A DNA stretch of 64,000 nt. It comes from Clostridiales bacterium (GTDB lineage Bacteria; Bacillota; Clostridia; Lachnospirales; Lachnospiraceae). The position numbers were made by a program, and so were the translations under genes. Numbering within the stretch: the stretch's first letter is position 1; each line of letters starts with the position of its first letter. Location of the stretch: NCBI GenBank assembly GCA_029007785.1, contig JAQXIM010000137.1, forward strand, positions 4,429 to 68,428, in the 5' to 3' direction. The notes under the pieces were generated by a model. That model did not search any database. It had not been told where the DNA came from and saw only the letters and a program-made list of their open reading frames with translations. Shown in pieces: positions 15,503 to 23,115 of the stretch.

Positions 15503-15604
15503 AGACATGGGGATTACGAATGTTTTTTTGATTTTGAGAGTGGGAAGCAGGAACGGCGTTGGATTCATTTGTCAGGAAATTTATGAGATGCAGTAAAGAC
15601 AAAA

Positions 15605-15670
15605 GGATGGGATCAGGATGGAATCAGGACAGGATCAGGACAGGATCAGGATGGGATCAGGAGATAAGCA
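15605..15670. repeat. Six tandem 11-nt units GGAyrGrATCA (GGA-rich), with the last unit supplying the SD of the MOSC gene
   Basis: ggatgggatca ggatggaatca ggacaggatca ggacaggatca ggatgggatca ggagataagca, followed by tt ATG at 15673. Confidence 0.95.
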
Positions 15671-16125: not shown

Positions 16126-17109
16126 ATGGAATCATTGTTTTCTGTACTGCAGGCCCGGCAGAATGAGGGGAAAGACAGTATGCTGGTAATGATCGTGGAT
16201 TCCGGCGGCTCTTCGCCCAGAAAAGCCGGTGCCTATATGGTTGTAGGAGAGGAAGGAATTCTTCTGGGAACCATTGGCGGCGGTAATCTGGAATATCAGG
16301 CCATGATGCGGGCACGGAATCTGCTGGGGGAGAAAAAGAACGACCAGATGAAGTACGAGCTTTCCAATCATGGAGCAGCGGAGCTGGGCATGGTCTGCGG
16401 TGGCTGGGCCAGGGTTCTTTTTTGCAGAATCAGTGGGGAATCGGAGGAAGACCGGGAACTGGTTTGCCGGGGAATGGAAGCTGCCGCCAGGCAGGAACCC
16501 TGCTGGCTTCTCCTTCCTTTTGGTGAGGGAAGGGTGAAGCTTCTGGAAATGCCGGAAGCTGATTTGGGACAAAGATCTTTTATTTTAGAAGGCCAGAATT
16601 ATTTTGGACAGCCTTTTTATTATGAAGGAAGGGTCTATATCTTCGGGGGCGGTCATGTGGCCGTGGAAACGGTGGCTCTGCTGAGTCATCTTGGTTTCCG
16701 GTGTGTTGTTGCCGATGATCGGGAAGAATTTGCAGATCCTCAGCGATTTCCGGAAGCAGAGGATACGGTATTGGTGGATTTTTCAAAACTGGAAGATTTC
16801 TTCCATTTATCCGGTGCCGATGCAGCCGTCATCATGACCCGGGGGCATCTTTGTGATACGGACGCGGAACGATTTGCCCTGAGCAGTCCGGTTGGTTATA
16901 TTGGCGTCATGGGAAGTCGGAAAAAGGCAGAATTTGTAAGAAAAAAACTGGAAGCGGAAGGATTTTCCAGGGATCAGCTGGATCGGGTGATCACGCCCAT
17001 TGGTATTGCGATTCAGGCAGAAACGCCGGCGGAAATCGCAGTCAGCATCGCAGGACAACTCATAGCCTATCGAAACGGCAGACGAAAAAAAATCCGGCCG
17101 GAAAAATGA
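16126..17109 (+). CDS. xdhC: XdhC/CoxI-family molybdenum hydroxylase accessory (cofactor insertion) protein
   Basis: N-domain SGGSSPRKAGAYMVV...GTIGGG.LE and a Rossmann domain IFGGGHVA. Confidence 0.85.
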   Translation: MESLFSVLQARQNEGKDSMLVMIVDSGGSSPRKAGAYMVVGEEGILLGTIGGGNLEYQAMMRARNLLGEKKNDQMKYELSNHGAAELGMVCGGWARVLFCRISGESEEDRELVCRGMEAAARQEPCWLLLPFGEGRVKLLEMPEADLGQRSFILEGQNYFGQPFYYEGRVYIFGGGHVAVETVALLSHLGFRCVVADDREEFADPQRFPEAEDTVLVDFSKLEDFFHLSGADAAVIMTRGHLCDTDAERFALSSPVGYIGVMGSRKKAEFVRKKLEAEGFSRDQLDRVITPIGIAIQAETPAEIAVSIAGQLIAYRNGRRKKIRPEK

Positions 17110-17162
17110 GCGGATTTCGACAGGAGGAACTCTCAATACAAAAGACAAACAAAAAAGGCAGC

Positions 17163-18005
17163 ATGAAAAAGAGAATGGCACTGCTTGTTTGCATGGTGAT
17201 GGGAATGACCATGATGATCGGATGCGGAAACAGTTCTGAAAGCGAGGAAGAAGTTGCCATTACATTATTTGCGGCAAAAAGTCTGAATACGGTAATGGAG
17301 GAGCTGATTCAGCTTTATAACGAAACCAATCCCAACGTAAAGATTGTAGGAAGCTACGACAGTTCCGGAACCCTGATGACTCAGATTGAAGAAGGGGCTG
17401 CCTGTGATGTTTTCTTCTCAGCTGCTCAGAAACAGATGGATCAGTTGGATCTGGAAGATGGGCTGGTGGAAGAAGGAACCAGATACAACGTGGTAAACAA
17501 TCAGGTGTGTGTGGTTACCTGGAAGGGAAGCGGCACAGAGGTAACCGGTCTTTCCGATATGGGTAAGGCAGACAGTATCGCTTTGGCAGACGGATCGGTT
17601 CCTGTAGGAAAATATACCAGACAGGCCATGGTAAATGCCGGTATGCTGGAAGCGGCGGACGATGTTTCTACGATTCCGACAGAAACGGTATCTCAGGCTC
17701 TCGGTGGTGTGGAGATCAATGAATGTGCCAATGTCGGTGCCGTTGCTGCAGCCGTTGCTGAAGGTTCCAATGAAGTGGGAACCGTGTACTATTCCGATAC
17801 ATATGGTTTGGAGGACAGACTGGAGATTCTGGAAATGGTATCTTATGATTTGACCGGAAATGTAATCTATCCGGTGGCTCAGATTAAAAACGGGGAAGCC
17901 AGCAAAGAAGAGGCGGCAGCAGCTAAGGATTTTGTAGAGTTTTTGATTTCAGAGGAAGCCAAATTGGTTTTTCAGAATTACTGCTTTGACACGGATGTGG
18001 AATAA
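17163..18005 (+). CDS. modA: Molybdate ABC transporter substrate-binding lipoprotein
   Basis: Lipobox MMIGCG, then ITLFAAKSL, SYDSSGTL..QI..GA..DVFFSA. Confidence 0.85.
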   Translation: MKKRMALLVCMVMGMTMMIGCGNSSESEEEVAITLFAAKSLNTVMEELIQLYNETNPNVKIVGSYDSSGTLMTQIEEGAACDVFFSAAQKQMDQLDLEDGLVEEGTRYNVVNNQVCVVTWKGSGTEVTGLSDMGKADSIALADGSVPVGKYTRQAMVNAGMLEAADDVSTIPTETVSQALGGVEINECANVGAVAAAVAEGSNEVGTVYYSDTYGLEDRLEILEMVSYDLTGNVIYPVAQIKNGEASKEEAAAAKDFVEFLISEEAKLVFQNYCFDTDVE

Positions 18006-18064
18006 AAAATGTGCGCAGAGAAAAAATCGATTCTTCCATACAAAGAAGAAAGAAGGAGAAATGA

Positions 18065-18769
18065 ATGGATCAGATGATGGTTTATTTGCAGGAACTGGAC
18101 TGGAGCCCTCTGTGGATTTCACTGAAAACCGGTGTGGCTGCCACCATTCTCTCCTTCTTTCTGGGAATCTGGGCGGCAAGAAAAACCATGAAAGCAAGTC
18201 CAAGGGTAAAATCACTGATGGATGGGATTCTGACGCTTCCCATGGTTCTGCCGCCCACCGTTGCCGGCTTTTTTCTCCTTCTTCTTTTCAGTCTGAGGCG
18301 GCCTGTGGGGGCTTATCTGTATCAGGAATGGAATATTAAAGTGGTTCAGACCTGGCTGGGATGTATTCTGGCAGCCACAGTGATTTCGTTTCCTTTGATG
18401 TATCGGAATGCCCGGGCAGCCTTTGAACAGGTGGATGTGAATCTGATTTATGCAGCCAGAACCCTGGGAATGTCGGAGTTCGCCGTGTTCTGGAAGATTG
18501 CTGTTCCTGCTGCCGGCCCCGGCATTGCTTCCGGTACGGTGCTTACCTTTGCCAGAGCTTTGGGCGAGTATGGTGCCACCTCCATGCTGGCGGGAAATAT
18601 TCCCGGGAAAACAGGGACCATTTCCCAGAAAATTGCCATGGTTATTCAGGATGGGAATTATGCCGCGGCAGGATTCTGGACGGCGGTGATTCTGGTGATT
18701 GCTTTCTTCATCCTGTTTTTGCTGAACCGGATTCTCTTCCGAAGTAACAGAAATAACCGGAGGTGGTGA
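18065..18769 (+). CDS. modB: Molybdate ABC transporter permease
   Basis: Multi-TM protein. EAA-like loop ARTLGMSEF..FWKI..P and GEYGATSMLAGNIPGKT, typical of ModB. Confidence 0.85.
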   Translation: MDQMMVYLQELDWSPLWISLKTGVAATILSFFLGIWAARKTMKASPRVKSLMDGILTLPMVLPPTVAGFFLLLLFSLRRPVGAYLYQEWNIKVVQTWLGCILAATVISFPLMYRNARAAFEQVDVNLIYAARTLGMSEFAVFWKIAVPAAGPGIASGTVLTFARALGEYGATSMLAGNIPGKTGTISQKIAMVIQDGNYAAAGFWTAVILVIAFFILFLLNRILFRSNRNNRRW

Positions 18770-18770
18770 G

Positions 18771-19850
18771 ATGGCAGGACTTCAGGTGGATATCAAAAAG
18801 AAATACGGCAGTTTTCAGCTGGATGTGGCCTTTCAGCTGGACCAGGGAACCCTCGGGATTCTGGGGGCCTCCGGATGCGGAAAGAGTCTGACCCTGAAAT
18901 GTATTGCCGGAATTGAGACGCCGGACCAGGGCAGGATTATTCTCCACGATCGTGTATTGTTTGATTCCAACAGAAAGATAAATCTTCCTCCCCAGAAACG
19001 AAAAGTGGGATATATGTTCCAGGATTATGCCCTTTTTCCTCATATGACGGTTGAAAAAAATATCATGGCAGGGATGGGAAGAAAACCGGATCTGTCACTG
19101 GTAAAAAAATACATCCGGCAGTTTCATCTGGAAGGCCTGGAAAAACATGAGCCTTCCTGGCTGTCCGGCGGGCAGAAACAGCGAGTGGCCATGGCCCGGA
19201 TGATTGCTGCCCAGCCGGAGCTTCTGCTTTTGGATGAACCCTTTTCTGCCATGGACAGTTATCTTCGATGGGAACTGGAAGGACAGATGCGTGAATTTCT
19301 GGAGCAGGCAGAAAAGCCGGCCCTTCTGGTTTCCCATAATCGGGACGAAGCGTACCGACTTTGCCAGACCGTGGGATGCATCAATCAGGGAAAGATGGAG
19401 ATCATTGAGCCTGTACGGGAATTTTTTGGGAATCCCAAGACAAGAACGTCAGCCCTTCTTTCCGGCTGCAAAAATATTTCTTCTGCCCGGATTCTGGATG
19501 AACACCATTTGCTGGCAGAGGATTGGGGGATAATTTTCACCATTCCCTGTGTTCCGGCTCATACAAAAGCAGTGGGAATTCGTGCCCATACCTTTATGGC
19601 TTCCGACAAAAGAGACAGGGACAATACGTTCCCGATTGCAGAGTCCCGTATTCTGGAAGATATGTTTGAGTGGAACATTTCTTTCCGGCTCTCAGAGAAC
19701 AGCAGCTGGATGCAATGGAAAATTCCAAAGAAGGAATGGCAGGAGGAACCGGTGGAGGTACCGGAATACGTGACAGTGGACGTGAAGAATATTATGTTTC
19801 TGGCAGAAGACGGTGAGTCCATGAAAAAAGATGGTATCATTGCTGGATAG
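18771..19850 (+). CDS. modC: Molybdate ABC transporter ATP-binding protein
   Basis: Walker A GASGCGKS, signature LSGGQKQRV, Walker B LLLDEP, and a C-terminal extension. Confidence 0.85.
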   Translation: MAGLQVDIKKKYGSFQLDVAFQLDQGTLGILGASGCGKSLTLKCIAGIETPDQGRIILHDRVLFDSNRKINLPPQKRKVGYMFQDYALFPHMTVEKNIMAGMGRKPDLSLVKKYIRQFHLEGLEKHEPSWLSGGQKQRVAMARMIAAQPELLLLDEPFSAMDSYLRWELEGQMREFLEQAEKPALLVSHNRDEAYRLCQTVGCINQGKMEIIEPVREFFGNPKTRTSALLSGCKNISSARILDEHHLLAEDWGIIFTIPCVPAHTKAVGIRAHTFMASDKRDRDNTFPIAESRILEDMFEWNISFRLSENSSWMQWKIPKKEWQEEPVEVPEYVTVDVKNIMFLAEDGESMKKDGIIAG

Positions 19851-19858
19851 ATCAGCAT

Positions 19859-20030
19859 CAGATTTGATGGAGAGTAAAGATGCCGGGAAAAAATATAAGG
19901 ATGGTACAATGATTGGACAAAAACGTGCCGGATTCGATGGAGAATAGGTCTGCCGGGATAAAGTATAAGGATGATACAATAATGAGGCAGAACCGTGCCG
20001 GATTCGATGGAGAGTGAGAATACTGTGGCA
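19859..20030. repeat. 70-nt tandem repeat, about 2.4 copies (roughly 77 percent identity between copies 1 and 2). The third copy runs into the yqeC 5' region.
   Basis: Copies start at 19859, 19929 and 19999 (c[a/g]gatt[t/c]gatggaga...tgccggga...tataaggatg.tacaat...cgtgc). Confidence 0.9.
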
Positions 20031-20072
20031 AAAATATATGGAAAAAATTCCGAGAGTAAAAATGGAACATGG

Positions 20073-20786
20073 ATGGAAATGCCCCCTGACAGGGCGTTTC
20101 CCTTTTTACAGGAAAAAAATCATGTGATTTCCCTGACGGGCGGAGGAGGAAAGACGACACTGATATACTGGCTGGCAGAATATTATGCAAAGCAAGGATA
20201 TCGAACCTTAATTTCTACGACAACCCATATGCAGCAGCCCAGGAAGGATGTGTGGGTACGGGATTGGAAGGATCTGGAGGAACACTGGAAACAGGAAGGG
20301 ATTGCTGTGATGGGAGAAGCCTGTGAGAATGGAAAGATTCGTCAGCCGGAATATACAGTTTTGGAGAGAGGTATCGAAATGGCAGATGTTGTTCTTCTGG
20401 AAGCAGACGGAGCAAAAGGGCTGCCCTGCAAGGTGCCTTCTTCCCGGGAACCGGTGATTTTGCCCCAATCGGATCTTGTGATTGGCGTCATGGGTCTGAG
20501 TGCTCTGGGGAAAACGCTGGAAGAAACGTGTTTCCGTCTGGAAGAAACCATGGCTTTCTTAGGAAAAGAAAAAGACCAGCGATTGACAGAGGAAGATGCA
20601 GCACGAATTCTTTCTTCGGAAAAAGGAACAAGAAAAAGTGTTGGAAACAGAGCATATTATGTCGTTCTGAATCAGTGCGACGATCCGGAGCGTTTCCGGA
20701 TGGGAATGGGAATTCTTCGCCGACTGGAAGACCGGGGGATAGCCGGAGGTGTGATGACCTGCCTGAAGGACGAGGCAGAATGGTGA
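20073..20786 (+). CDS. yqeC: YqeC-family selenium cofactor biosynthesis protein (P-loop)
   Basis: VISLTGGGGKTT P-loop about 20 aa from M at 20073, then LLEADGAKG and VVLNQCD. In-frame alternative starts are at 20007 (ATG) and 19995 (GTG), both inside the repeat. Confidence 0.75.
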   Translation: MEMPPDRAFPFLQEKNHVISLTGGGGKTTLIYWLAEYYAKQGYRTLISTTTHMQQPRKDVWVRDWKDLEEHWKQEGIAVMGEACENGKIRQPEYTVLERGIEMADVVLLEADGAKGLPCKVPSSREPVILPQSDLVIGVMGLSALGKTLEETCFRLEETMAFLGKEKDQRLTEEDAARILSSEKGTRKSVGNRAYYVVLNQCDDPERFRMGMGILRRLEDRGIAGGVMTCLKDEAEW

Positions 20787-20816
20787 AGAGGAAGGGTTTT
20801 CTGGAAAAGTATATCG

Positions 20817-20912
20817 GGATAAAAGGAAACAGAAAGCGAAGGAAATAAAAAGCGACGGAAAACAAGATAGACGGAAAACAAGATAGATGGAAACAGAAAG
20901 GGATAGCGAAAA
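20817..20912. repeat. Purine-rich tract with roughly 16-nt periodicity upstream of moaC (two perfect units plus degenerate units)
   Basis: gacggaaaacaagata occurs at 20854-20869 and 20870-20885. Flanking units are GAnGGAAA-like. ATG is at 20915. Confidence 0.85.
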
Positions 20913-20914
20913 CG

Positions 20915-21394
20915 ATGGGGAAACTAACACATTTTGACGAAAACGGAGCGGCTGTCATGGTGGATATTCATGAAAAAGCAGATACCAACCGGATCGCGGT
21001 GGCTGCAGGAAAAATTCATGTCAGCCGGGAAGTATTTGAGGCGATTACAGAAGGTCAGGTGAAAAAAGGAGACGTTCTGGGAGTTGCCCGAATTGCAGGT
21101 ATTATGGGAGCAAAAAAAAATGCCGATCTGATTCCTCTGTGTCATCCCATCGGGATGACCAGCTGTGAGATCTCTTTCCAATTATCGGAGGAGGAATTGT
21201 CCATTACAGCGATTTGCAGAACCGCCTGCACCGGAAAAACGGGAGTGGAAATGGAGGCACTGACCGGAGTCAGTGTTGCCCTGCTGACAATTTACGATAT
21301 GTGCAAGGCCATGGATCGATCTATGCGGATTACCGATATTCATCTGGTGGAAAAGGACGGAGGAAAAAGCGGCCATTATCAAAGTCCGATTTGA
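20915..21394 (+). CDS. moaC: Cyclic pyranopterin monophosphate synthase
   Basis: GDVLGVARIAGIMGAKK..DLIPLCHP and EMEALTGVSVALLTIYDM are classic MoaC motifs. Confidence 0.95.
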   Translation: MGKLTHFDENGAAVMVDIHEKADTNRIAVAAGKIHVSREVFEAITEGQVKKGDVLGVARIAGIMGAKKNADLIPLCHPIGMTSCEISFQLSEEELSITAICRTACTGKTGVEMEALTGVSVALLTIYDMCKAMDRSMRITDIHLVEKDGGKSGHYQSPI

Positions 21395-21504
21395 CGGATG
21401 AAGATACGTAAGAAGGAATGGATCAGATATTTATTTTAAACCGTTTTGGTGAAAGAATTCTTCTTCGCGGAAGAAGTTAACAGGAAAATCCAAGGGGGAA
21501 TTTT

Positions 21505-21996
21505 ATGTATAAGACAGGTATTATTACATTGAGTGATAAAGGAGCAAAAGGTGAAAGAGTGGATCTCAGCGGTCAGAAGATAAAGGAACTTCTTCCTGCG
21601 GATAAGTATGAAGTGGTTTCTTATGTTCTTTTGCCTGATGCGCTGGATCAAATAGAAGCGGAACTGATTCGTCTGGCAGATGACTGCGGATGTGATTTGA
21701 TTCTTACCACGGGAGGAACAGGATTTTCACCGAGAGATGTGACACCGGAAGCTACTCTTCATGTAGCGGATCGGCAGGCACCGGGAATTGCAGAGGCAAT
21801 TCGTGGATACAGCATGACCATTACCAAAAGAGCCATGCTGAGCCGGGGCGTCAGCGTAATTCGCGGAAACACTTTGATTATCAATCTTCCGGGAAGTCCA
21901 AAGGCAGTAGAGGAAAGCCTCACATATATTCTGGATACACTGGAACACGGACTGGATATTCTTTCGGGACATGGTGGAGAATGCGCCAGACGTTAA
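21505..21996 (+). CDS. mogA: MogA/MoaB-type molybdopterin adenylyltransferase domain protein
   Basis: ITLSDKG, LILTTGGTGFSPRDVTPEAT, and PGSPKA. Confidence 0.9.
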   Translation: MYKTGIITLSDKGAKGERVDLSGQKIKELLPADKYEVVSYVLLPDALDQIEAELIRLADDCGCDLILTTGGTGFSPRDVTPEATLHVADRQAPGIAEAIRGYSMTITKRAMLSRGVSVIRGNTLIINLPGSPKAVEESLTYILDTLEHGLDILSGHGGECARR

Positions 21997-22093
21997 GTGC
22001 GGTCTACCATGTTGGAAAAAAGGTAAAGAAAGAGAATTTAATCTGACGAAAGCAGAAAAATCAGAAAAAACATAAGAATTTAGAGAAAAAGTA

Positions 22094-22122
22094 TTGACAA
22101 TGCAAGTGAGGTGTTGTAAACT
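22094..22122 (+). promoter_or_regulatory. Sigma-A-like promoter for the secreted orphan gene
   Basis: TTGACA (22094-22099), a 17-nt spacer, then TAAACT (22117-22122). Confidence 0.5.
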
Positions 22123-22221
22123 TTAAATATAATCGATTATATTAAAAGTCTAGAATATAATGTTTAAAAGAGATCTCGAGTAATCCTAAGACAAGTACTG
22201 AATTCAACGGAAAGGAGAAGA

Positions 22222-23115
22222 ATGATGAAAAGATTATTCAAATTTGTGTTGTCATTAGTTTTGATACTTTCAATGTTTTCTCAGATTGCTTTTTCGCAAA
22301 CCAGGGCTGTTGTTGACGAAAAACAAGAGGTTACAGAATTAAACGAATATGAAAGTTATTGTTATTTTACTCAGACATCTGATGCGGAGCTACTAAATCA
22401 GGGATATTCTTTGAGTTATATTCGAGATATGAAGCAATTTGATTATGAAAAAGCACTATTAGAGCGAGCTACTCTTCCTATTTCCGAACTTAGAGGATAT
22501 GGGTATACAGACGAACAGATAAGGGAGCTAAAAGCATATGCAAATGGGGAAAAAGCATTTGAAGCTATAGCGCAATTTACAGCTGCCAGTTTAAGTGCAG
22601 ATATTACGTTTTCAAGTTATAGCACATCTTCATATGCATTTTCATATTCTTGGACATGGTCTTCTCTGCCTCTGCAGGTATATAAAGATATGGCAGTTAT
22701 GAAATGGAGCGGAATGGCTACTTCAGGTGCTTTATTGGGGACTGAAATTGGTAGTGTTAGTAGCGTAGTAAAATATTACTATACTACTAATGGAAATTAT
22801 TATACTTCGCAATCGGGCGAGGGAACTATAATAGAAAATGGATATTGGATAAAATTTCCATTGAGAAAAATGGATAATAATAATGCGAATTATGTTTGGG
22901 CAAAAAAAGGAACAGTTTATGCTAAGATTAATAAAAGTGGTACAGCTGCTTTAGCTAAAATGCAAGTAACGGCTATTTATGGGCATACAACAAAAAGTGT
23001 TTCTATTACACCGTCGCTAGGTTCAGGAATGACAATATCCTTTAGTAGTAATGACGGATTAGAATTGAAAGGAAATAAGACAAAATACTGTAGTAGTTCT
23101 GGAGTTATATCGTAA
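22222..23115 (+). CDS. Secreted hypothetical protein (signal peptide, S/T/Y-rich beta-type C-terminal part)
   Basis: N-terminal signal MMKRLFKFVLSLVLILSMFSQIAFSQ and a GGAGAAG SD. The codon usage is AT-rich. No family was recognised. Confidence 0.7.
   Translation: MMKRLFKFVLSLVLILSMFSQIAFSQTRAVVDEKQEVTELNEYESYCYFTQTSDAELLNQGYSLSYIRDMKQFDYEKALLERATLPISELRGYGYTDEQIRELKAYANGEKAFEAIAQFTAASLSADITFSSYSTSSYAFSYSWTWSSLPLQVYKDMAVMKWSGMATSGALLGTEIGSVSSVVKYYYTTNGNYYTSQSGEGTIIENGYWIKFPLRKMDNNNANYVWAKKGTVYAKINKSGTAALAKMQVTAIYGHTTKSVSITPSLGSGMTISFSSNDGLELKGNKTKYCSSSGVIS

Follow-up and report, generated by a model that had tools for sequence, protein, structure and literature searches.

Between modC and yqeC in the molybdate and molybdenum-cofactor (Moco) operon of a Clostridiales bacterium lies an array of about three 70-nucleotide (nt) units, and two small upstream open reading frames (uORF1 and uORF2) run through it. 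We studied the array within a 64,000-nt stretch of contig JAQXIM010000137.1 (positions 4,429 to 68,428; hereafter ‘the window’, whose numbering is used throughout). Comparison of the units with each other, with the flanking genes and with related loci suggests that the array is very probably a decaying relic left by tandem triplication at the modC–yqeC junction, with the two uORFs being side-products of that event rather than a translation relay feeding yqeC. The gene order around the array is modA, modB, modC, yqeC, moaC, mogA/moaB, and the two genes that border it are as follows.

modC, 18771..19850, + strand: molybdate ATP-binding cassette (ABC) transporter ATPase, 359 amino acids (aa), with a match to Pfam ABC_tran
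yqeC, 20025..20786, + strand: selenium-dependent hydroxylase accessory protein, 253 aa with a GTG start (most likely extent); ATG 20007 is a possible alternative start

Tandem Repeats Finder (TRF) reports a period-70 array at 19861–20015 (2.2 copies, 81% matches, score 205), whilst a repeat search of the window places in-register copies at 19861, 19931 and 20001 and finds a second repeat block, GG.AAAAATATA.GGA, that extends the array, shifted by 1 nt, to 20042. At the other end the repeat runs into modC itself: with the last 40 nt of the gene (19821–19860) compared at every offset from −600 to +600 (background mean 10.6 matches, standard deviation 2.9), offsets +70 and +140 take ranks 1 and 2 of 1122, with 21 and 20 of 40 positions matching. 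The same holds in a second strain, here called L023, where offsets +141 and +71 rank 1 and 2 (26 and 23 of 40 matches) and where TRF follows the array as far as the equivalent of window position 19827 (period 71, 2.7 copies, score 268–273). A stringent local alignment (+2/−3) of the window's modC tail with the units is not significant on its own; it was the register test, together with L023, that revealed the homology. No register signal was found to the left of ~19821 or to the right of 20042, and any further extension into modC or yqeC is rejected. In total the array thus comprises ~3.1 units, from ~19821–19827 to 20042, its left edge formed by the final 8–10 codons and stop of modC, and its right edge by the Shine–Dalgarno sequence, start and codons 1–6 of yqeC.

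The units of the window are identical at 55 of 70 positions (79%), a repeat far beyond chance. An earlier reading of this DNA (the original prediction) had recognised the 70-nt repeat, but counted 2.4 copies, stopping short of the modC tail, and put the identity of the copies slightly too low, at about 77 percent. The same three-copy layout is present in an independent assembly (Logan DRR025072, the source of L023), and the array is therefore not an assembly artefact. Elsewhere in the 2.35-Mb genome, including the region upstream of modA, there is no second copy of the unit, just four weak matches without a common motif.

What the unit consists of becomes apparent once the copies are aligned in phase 19827–19896, 19897–19966 and 19967–20037: each one reads as a modC tail (K-D-G-I-I-A-G), a stop, a spacer, a Shine–Dalgarno sequence, a start and the first codons of yqeC. 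In this register the modC frame coincides with that of the uORFs, and KDGIIAG with its stop aligns with KDGTMIGQ and KDDTIMRQ. The boundaries given for unit A follow the phase of the presumed original.

Unit A, 19827..19896, + strand: real modC tail KDGIIAG, TAG stop, spacer, relic Shine–Dalgarno GGAGAG and relic yqeC start GGG (GTG in unit C); from the register test, a six-unit alignment and TRF on L023
Unit B, 19897..19966, + strand: relic throughout, with modC tail KDGTMIGQ (CAA for the stop), Shine–Dalgarno GGAGAA and start GGG
Unit C, 19967..20042, + strand: relic modC tail KDDTIMRQ (CAG for the stop), then the working yqeC Shine–Dalgarno GGAGAG (20009–20014), GTG 20025 and yqeC codons 1–6

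Unit C is one base longer than units A and B. Two blocks, TGCCGGGA.AAA.TATAAGGATG and GCCGGATTYGATGGAGA, are well kept across all copies and in both strains. The unit alignments also reveal a mosaic of similarity: in their left halves B and C are alike and unlike A, and in their right halves A and B are alike and unlike C.

We propose that a segment of ~70 bp, spanning the modC stop, a spacer of ~34 nt and the ribosome-binding site and start of yqeC, was duplicated in tandem. Two steps are probable, and from the unit alignments we infer their order: the junction would have been duplicated once, with the resulting relic-only middle segment duplicated again later; such a second duplication would explain the likeness of B and C on the left and of A and B on the right. 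The units would afterwards have been partly homogenised against each other. On this model just the outermost parts still work, namely the leftmost modC tail with its stop and the rightmost GGAGAG (20009–20014) with GTG 20025, such that yqeC would be translated from its own Shine–Dalgarno sequence, and the inner copies would be drifting, probably functionless relics in which the copied start reads GGG and the copied stop CAA or CAG. The modC–yqeC spacer would thereby have grown from ~34–48 nt to 174 nt, and this longer spacer is probably the only functional consequence. Duplication of an N-terminal coding fragment had been one of two explanations offered by the original prediction; the duplication stands, though what was copied is the whole modC-stop/spacer/yqeC-start junction and not a piece of YqeC alone.

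The tail of ModC may belong to the same history. The protein matches the NCBIfam modC_ABC and PRK11144 models, in both cases below the curated cut-offs, and its final 12 residues, GESMKKDGIIAG, are lineage-specific; they are kept in L023 as GGSMDKDGIIVG. This tail would be either older than the duplication, or captured from the array after loss of a stop near 19812.

The right-hand end of the array is tied to the start of yqeC. The identity of the protein is clear (218 bits against TIGR03172, cut-off 73; 145 bits against Pfam YqeC PF19842, cut-off 27.6), and alignment locates a P-loop, GGGGKT, and a conserved N-terminal AFPFL motif. Upstream of these, a gap-free alignment matches the window sequence AKIYGKNSESKNGTWMEMPPDRAFPFL with the first residues of the closest homologues, MKIYGKDAKSGDGAYRKLPTEAAFPFL and MRIYGTDAK...; the closest N-termini read MKIYGKDAKSGDGAYRKLPTEAAFPFLKEKGHVVSL and MRIYGTDAKGRGG..., and others MSKLYLRN..., MAEIYIQS... 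and MSKVYLSK.... The window reads V-AKIYGKNSESKNGTWMEMPPDRAFPFLQEKNHVISL, where V is GTG 20025 and falls in the Met column of the homologues, so that a start at this codon matches their M-x-K-I-Y termini. Shine–Dalgarno pairing is also best here (−6.8 kcal/mol, spacing 8), the other candidates being ATG 20073 (−3.3 kcal/mol), ATG 20079 (−5.5 kcal/mol, at a spacing of 1) and GTG 20124 (−4.3 kcal/mol). In an AlphaFold2 model of the 253-aa protein (mean predicted local distance difference test score, pLDDT, 95), residues 3–7 (KIYGK) and 16–18 form a β-hairpin, the first two ten-residue blocks having pLDDT values of 91 and 87.

A start at GTG 20025 or ATG 20007 is thus very likely, and one at 20073 or 20079, for which the original prediction had argued, is contradicted by the homologue N-termini and the modelled hairpin. 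Saying this, a shorter class of homologues begins M-x5-FPFL, and 20073/20079 could consequently serve as a secondary start; we regard a start at either position as a minority prospect. With the start at GTG 20025, the third repeat copy contains the working ribosome-binding site of yqeC and its first six codons. The call deposited with the assembly, GTG 20124 (220 aa; P0001), drops 33 residues, the AFPFL motif and the modelled N-terminal β-hairpin among them, and is probably a mis-call.

The two uORFs lie where the original prediction had placed them, each with 26 codons.

uORF1, 19867..19947, + strand: ATG to TAG, 26 codons, MESKDAGKKYKDGTMIGQKRAGFDGE followed by the stop
uORF2, 19937..20017, + strand: ATG to TGA, 26 codons, MENRSAGIKYKDDTIMRQNRAGFDGE followed by the stop

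Its description of their geometry is likewise borne out: the ATG of the third copy, at 20007, is in the frame of yqeC, each uORF stop begins 8 nt after the next ATG, with uORF1 and uORF2 overlapping by 11 nt, and the frames step by +1 because 70 is 3 × 23 + 1. Both frames are open further upstream, that of uORF1 from ATG 19831 and that of uORF2 from TTG 19913. The layout of the units suggests a simple origin for these frames. The ATG of uORF1 sits inside the relic Shine–Dalgarno sequence GATGGAGAG, the frame then passes through the relic modC tail, in phase with the former modC frame, and its stop falls in the next relic Shine–Dalgarno sequence; most likely uORF1 is a by-product frame, and uORF2, whose TGA lies between the yqeC Shine–Dalgarno sequence and GTG 20025, 7 nt before the latter, has the same origin. 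Both would be chimeric relic frames, with an ATG from the copied Shine–Dalgarno region and a body from the copied modC tail. The recurrence of an ATG and a stop every 70 nt makes a fixed-distance overlap automatic, the ‘stop 8 nt past the next ATG’ following from the period alone. The uORF stops are, moreover, T-purine-purine triplets in a purine-rich Shine–Dalgarno region; only one of the four triplets of that form is not a stop codon.

In terms of initiation signals, the ATG of uORF1 has no Shine–Dalgarno match (duplex energy +0.4 kcal/mol) and that of uORF2 a weak one (−3.3 kcal/mol). The two peptides share 17 of 26 residues (one more than the 16 counted originally). Placing the 17 nucleotide differences between the copies at random leaves 15.1 ± 1.5 identical positions, as compared to the 18 observed when the stop is counted (P = 0.054); the identity of the peptides is not beyond chance.

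Further evidence comes from other genomes. Exact-protein look-ups with ModC, ModB, MoaC and YqeC variants gave three useful contigs (L023, L025 and L026); only one further contig covers the spacer, that of L023, a second strain ~95% identical to the window and with a three-unit array. Between the window and L023, modC is 96.8% identical, yqeC 95.0%, and the segment with the working Shine–Dalgarno sequence and start (20007–20042) 97.2%; the relic part of the array (19851–20006) is 85.3% identical, and at 14.7% difference diverges ~3–4 times faster than the flanking coding sequence, where 3–5% of positions differ. As a rough estimate, the relic part would be evolving at or above the synonymous rate of the neighbouring genes. 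The relic copies have lost their start and stop codons, and the inner copies of the two strains differ by one 1-nt insertion or deletion: in L023 a +1-nt insertion in copy 1 reduces uORF1 to 10 codons (MESKDAGINI and a stop), ending 40 nt before the next ATG. uORF2 is intact there, as MESKDAGIKYKDGTVVGQNRAGFDGE followed by a stop. The relic units of L023 are more alike (65/70 identical) than those of the window (55/70), and either one resembles its neighbour more than it does the window unit in the same position, indicating concerted evolution or re-duplication.

The original prediction had suggested comparing the modC–yqeC spacer of related genomes, and that comparison reveals a single, unrepeated junction in relatives with the same gene order. 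L025 and L026 (both from Logan) have the same modA-modB-modC-yqeC-moaC order, with ModC 75–77% and YqeC 63–64% identical to the proteins of the window. Their spacer measures 48–49 nt, with AGGAGG or GGGAGG and then an ATG; it contains no uORF, and TRF finds no tandem repeat in it. ModC ends in FLTDD in these relatives, 12 residues earlier and without the GESMKKDGIIAG tail, and their single spacer aligns with unit C (a common CGTGCC, the Shine–Dalgarno sequence and the start codon followed by K-I-Y-G). Beyond these, the best YqeC match among 60 GTDB relatives is 44% identical, too distant for a comparison of DNA. A scan for the pattern TGCCGGATTCGATGGAGA gave 72 metagenome-contig and 71 genome-contig matches, all of them single chance matches in unrelated taxa, and a BLAST search of the region against all these loci returned nothing relevant.

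Several observations weigh against a simple relic. In the comparison of window copy 1 with L023 copy 2 there is an excess of synonymous change in the uORF frame (P = 0.003), with P = 0.054 and P = 0.31 for the other two unit pairs; as a signal of peptide conservation this is weak and inconsistent, yet it is the main item that cannot be dismissed in full. In both strains uORF2 is unbroken, with a stop 7 nt ahead of GTG 20025, a geometry suited to translational coupling. In addition, some 140 nt of seemingly useless DNA has persisted while the units diverged by 20–45%, and this in a lineage whose genomes are compact, and three units are present in both strains with no difference in copy number, although two strains make a weak test; the strain comparison as a whole is one of these two strains only.

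Some of these observations would count in favour of a termination–reinitiation relay. Here, ribosomes leaving modC would restart in turn at uORF1, uORF2 and yqeC, and the coupling of modC to yqeC would be kept across the enlarged spacer. The stop/start geometry is real, the end of uORF1 overlapping the beginning of uORF2 by 11 nt and uORF2 stopping 8 nt after ATG 20007, again an 11-nt overlap, and the synonymous excess points, weakly and inconsistently, in the same direction. The first hand-over would, however, have to span 16 nt from the modC stop to an ATG without a Shine–Dalgarno match, and experiments in E. coli and Haloferax have found that gaps of ~20 nt almost abolish termination–reinitiation coupling (PMC10666635). 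The chain is broken in a strain that is ~95% identical, a 70-nt period by itself produces the overlaps, and divergence in the region runs at roughly the neutral rate. yqeC has its own Shine–Dalgarno sequence, pairing at −6.8 kcal/mol as against +0.4 and −3.3 kcal/mol at the uORF starts, whilst in the relatives a plain 48-nt spacer with AGGAGG suffices, without repeat or uORF. A relay, which the original prediction had put forward, is not supported, and we consider it improbable. A variant in which relic units were co-opted after the duplication, with ribosomes passed from modC via both mini-ORFs, or at least via uORF2, to the yqeC start and coupling thus bridging the 174-nt spacer, we regard as having a slender chance at best; were it true, it would be a natural multi-step reinitiation system built from duplicated gene ends, a rare natural case in bacteria. 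Least credible is a reading of the uORFs as genes for functional small proteins, that is, paralogous micropeptides: there are two open 26-codon frames with 17/26 identical residues, but that identity lies within chance expectation, the frames lack a Shine–Dalgarno sequence, uORF1 is truncated in L023, neither exists in the relatives, and the peptide is a chimera of the copied Shine–Dalgarno region and the copied ModC tail. We judge this to be very improbable indeed.

The repeat could also act in cis, either as tandem operators (for example, for the ModE-N-like protein encoded upstream) or as a tandem RNA sensor controlling yqeC-moaC-mog. Riboswitches and ModE operators are known from molybdate and Moco operons, and the setting here is such an operon; two blocks of the unit are well kept, and the array is followed by a hairpin of the kind found in terminators.

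Terminator-like hairpin, 20075..20101, + strand: 10-bp stem and 7-nt loop, then CTTTTT, with an A-run upstream; lies in yqeC codons 17–28

Against this, an Rfam scan of 16500–22500 at E <= 10 gives no match in the spacer (19851–20125) to any family, Moco-type motifs included. Folds of single units and of the whole spacer are no better than those of shuffled sequences (z-scores −1.5 to +1.0), and RNAalifold on four and on six units returns only −3 to −4 kcal/mol, the alignments showing neither a conserved fold nor convincing covariation. No other occurrence of the motif is found in the genome, the region upstream of modA included, and relatives that share the gene order lack it; what the kept blocks contain is precisely the copied Shine–Dalgarno/start region and the copied modC tail. 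The hairpin, for its part, lies inside conserved YqeC coding sequence, its 3′ arm and T-run encoding the AFPFL motif, and its stability is not exceptional (−17.4 kcal/mol, z = −1.5). A cis-acting role for the array has, in our estimation, little prospect of being correct, and the hairpin is probably incidental to it. The hairpin is kept in L023, where a G-U pair becomes A-U through a synonymous change; taken by itself, it could be either an internal attenuator or a coincidence.

The decayed junction duplication that we favour has well-known counterparts. Intergenic tandem duplications and variable-number tandem repeats (VNTRs) occur in bacterial operons, for instance the repeats of the mycobacterial interspersed repetitive unit (MIRU) type, which are intergenic and in which stop and start signals overlap. 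As in these, the units described here are tens of bases long, lie head-to-tail in an operon spacer and have a length that is not a multiple of three; by copying the stop and start signals of the neighbouring genes they give rise to small ORFs that overlap, related species lack the array, and the units are homogenised within a strain. Unlike MIRU-type and VNTR repeats, the array is confined to a single locus and is not part of a dispersed family, shows no difference in copy number between the two strains, and consists of old, diverged units (79% identical) rather than near-identical ones. The marks of a tandem-duplication relic are nonetheless all present: a constant period, homology with the functional flanks, a single junction in relatives and unconstrained inner copies.

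A resemblance to coupled overlapping gene pairs (Huber et al. 2019, PMC6728339; 2023, PMC10666635) lies in the position of a stop within a few bases of the next start, at −11 nt for uORF1/uORF2 and +7 nt for uORF2/GTG 20025. In the known pairs, however, the overlap is mostly 4 or 1 nt and the partners are real genes that are conserved (PMC6728339, PMC10666635). Here, by contrast, relic frames that lack initiation signals take the place of the upstream gene, the first hand-over would have to span 16 nt and the chain is broken in the sister strain. Leader-peptide attenuators and regulatory uORFs of the trp or erm type are also known upstream of bacterial operons, and share with this locus the short ORFs that precede a gene, with a hairpin and its T-run close by. 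The ORFs in the array differ from such leaders in lacking a Shine–Dalgarno sequence and any run of regulatory codons; no alternative pairings join them to the hairpin, which in this case is itself part of the conserved coding sequence. In short, we see in the array a commonplace junction duplication that belongs with the intergenic tandem repeats, and no member of a described uORF, attenuator or riboswitch class.

The case serves chiefly as a caution and as a guide to annotation. When a gene junction is duplicated in tandem, ‘paralogous’, regularly overlapping mini-ORFs arise of themselves, and these resemble a designed uORF relay. For the annotation of yqeC, the likely start moves to GTG 20025 (253 aa), from GTG 20124 (220 aa) in the assembly. 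More broadly, junctions in the selenium/molybdenum-cofactor cluster seem prone to tandem repeats.

A number of other repeats and rearrangements were seen in and around this cluster. Directly before moaC there is a purine-rich 16-nt tandem repeat (20823–20893 in the window, 1631–1692 in L023) that differs between the two strains by one 16-nt unit and is, on that account, a true copy-number-variable repeat; outside it, the yqeC–moaC spacer is 99% identical between them. Other tandem arrays of the window lie at 1840–1958, 2508–2595 and 15604–15662, with periods of 9/18, 44 and 11; taken together with those at 19827–20042 and 20823–20893, they suggest that the lineage accumulates tandem repeats at gene junctions.

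Repeats also accompany yqeC homologues in related genomes. In a genome of the same genus (G001; L011, 781–2262), a 493-aa ORF encodes a fusion of a MocA/MobA-like nucleotidyltransferase domain with YqeC, which follows it in frame. The linker of the fusion consists of tandem copies of an 18-nt unit (SSDSGITSDSGIALDTG); here, too, a yqeC junction contains a repeat, with no sequence relationship to the one described above. In a genome of the same family (G027; L014, 2190–2335), the yqeC homologue is followed directly by a 56-nt tandem repeat (2.6 copies, 98% identity). A YqeC homologue of 378 aa from ENA (P0002) contains an internal tandem duplication of ~140 residues, with AVAGVPAEQGKLTALPSEQ... 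occurring twice, which may be real or an assembly artefact. Finally, a further Logan contig (SRR25400512; L024) is 100% identical to the window from 20226 on, and carries before that point 488 nt of AT-rich DNA (L024 1–488) that is absent from the window's genome; this junction represents either a mobile insertion disrupting yqeC after the P-loop or a chimeric contig.

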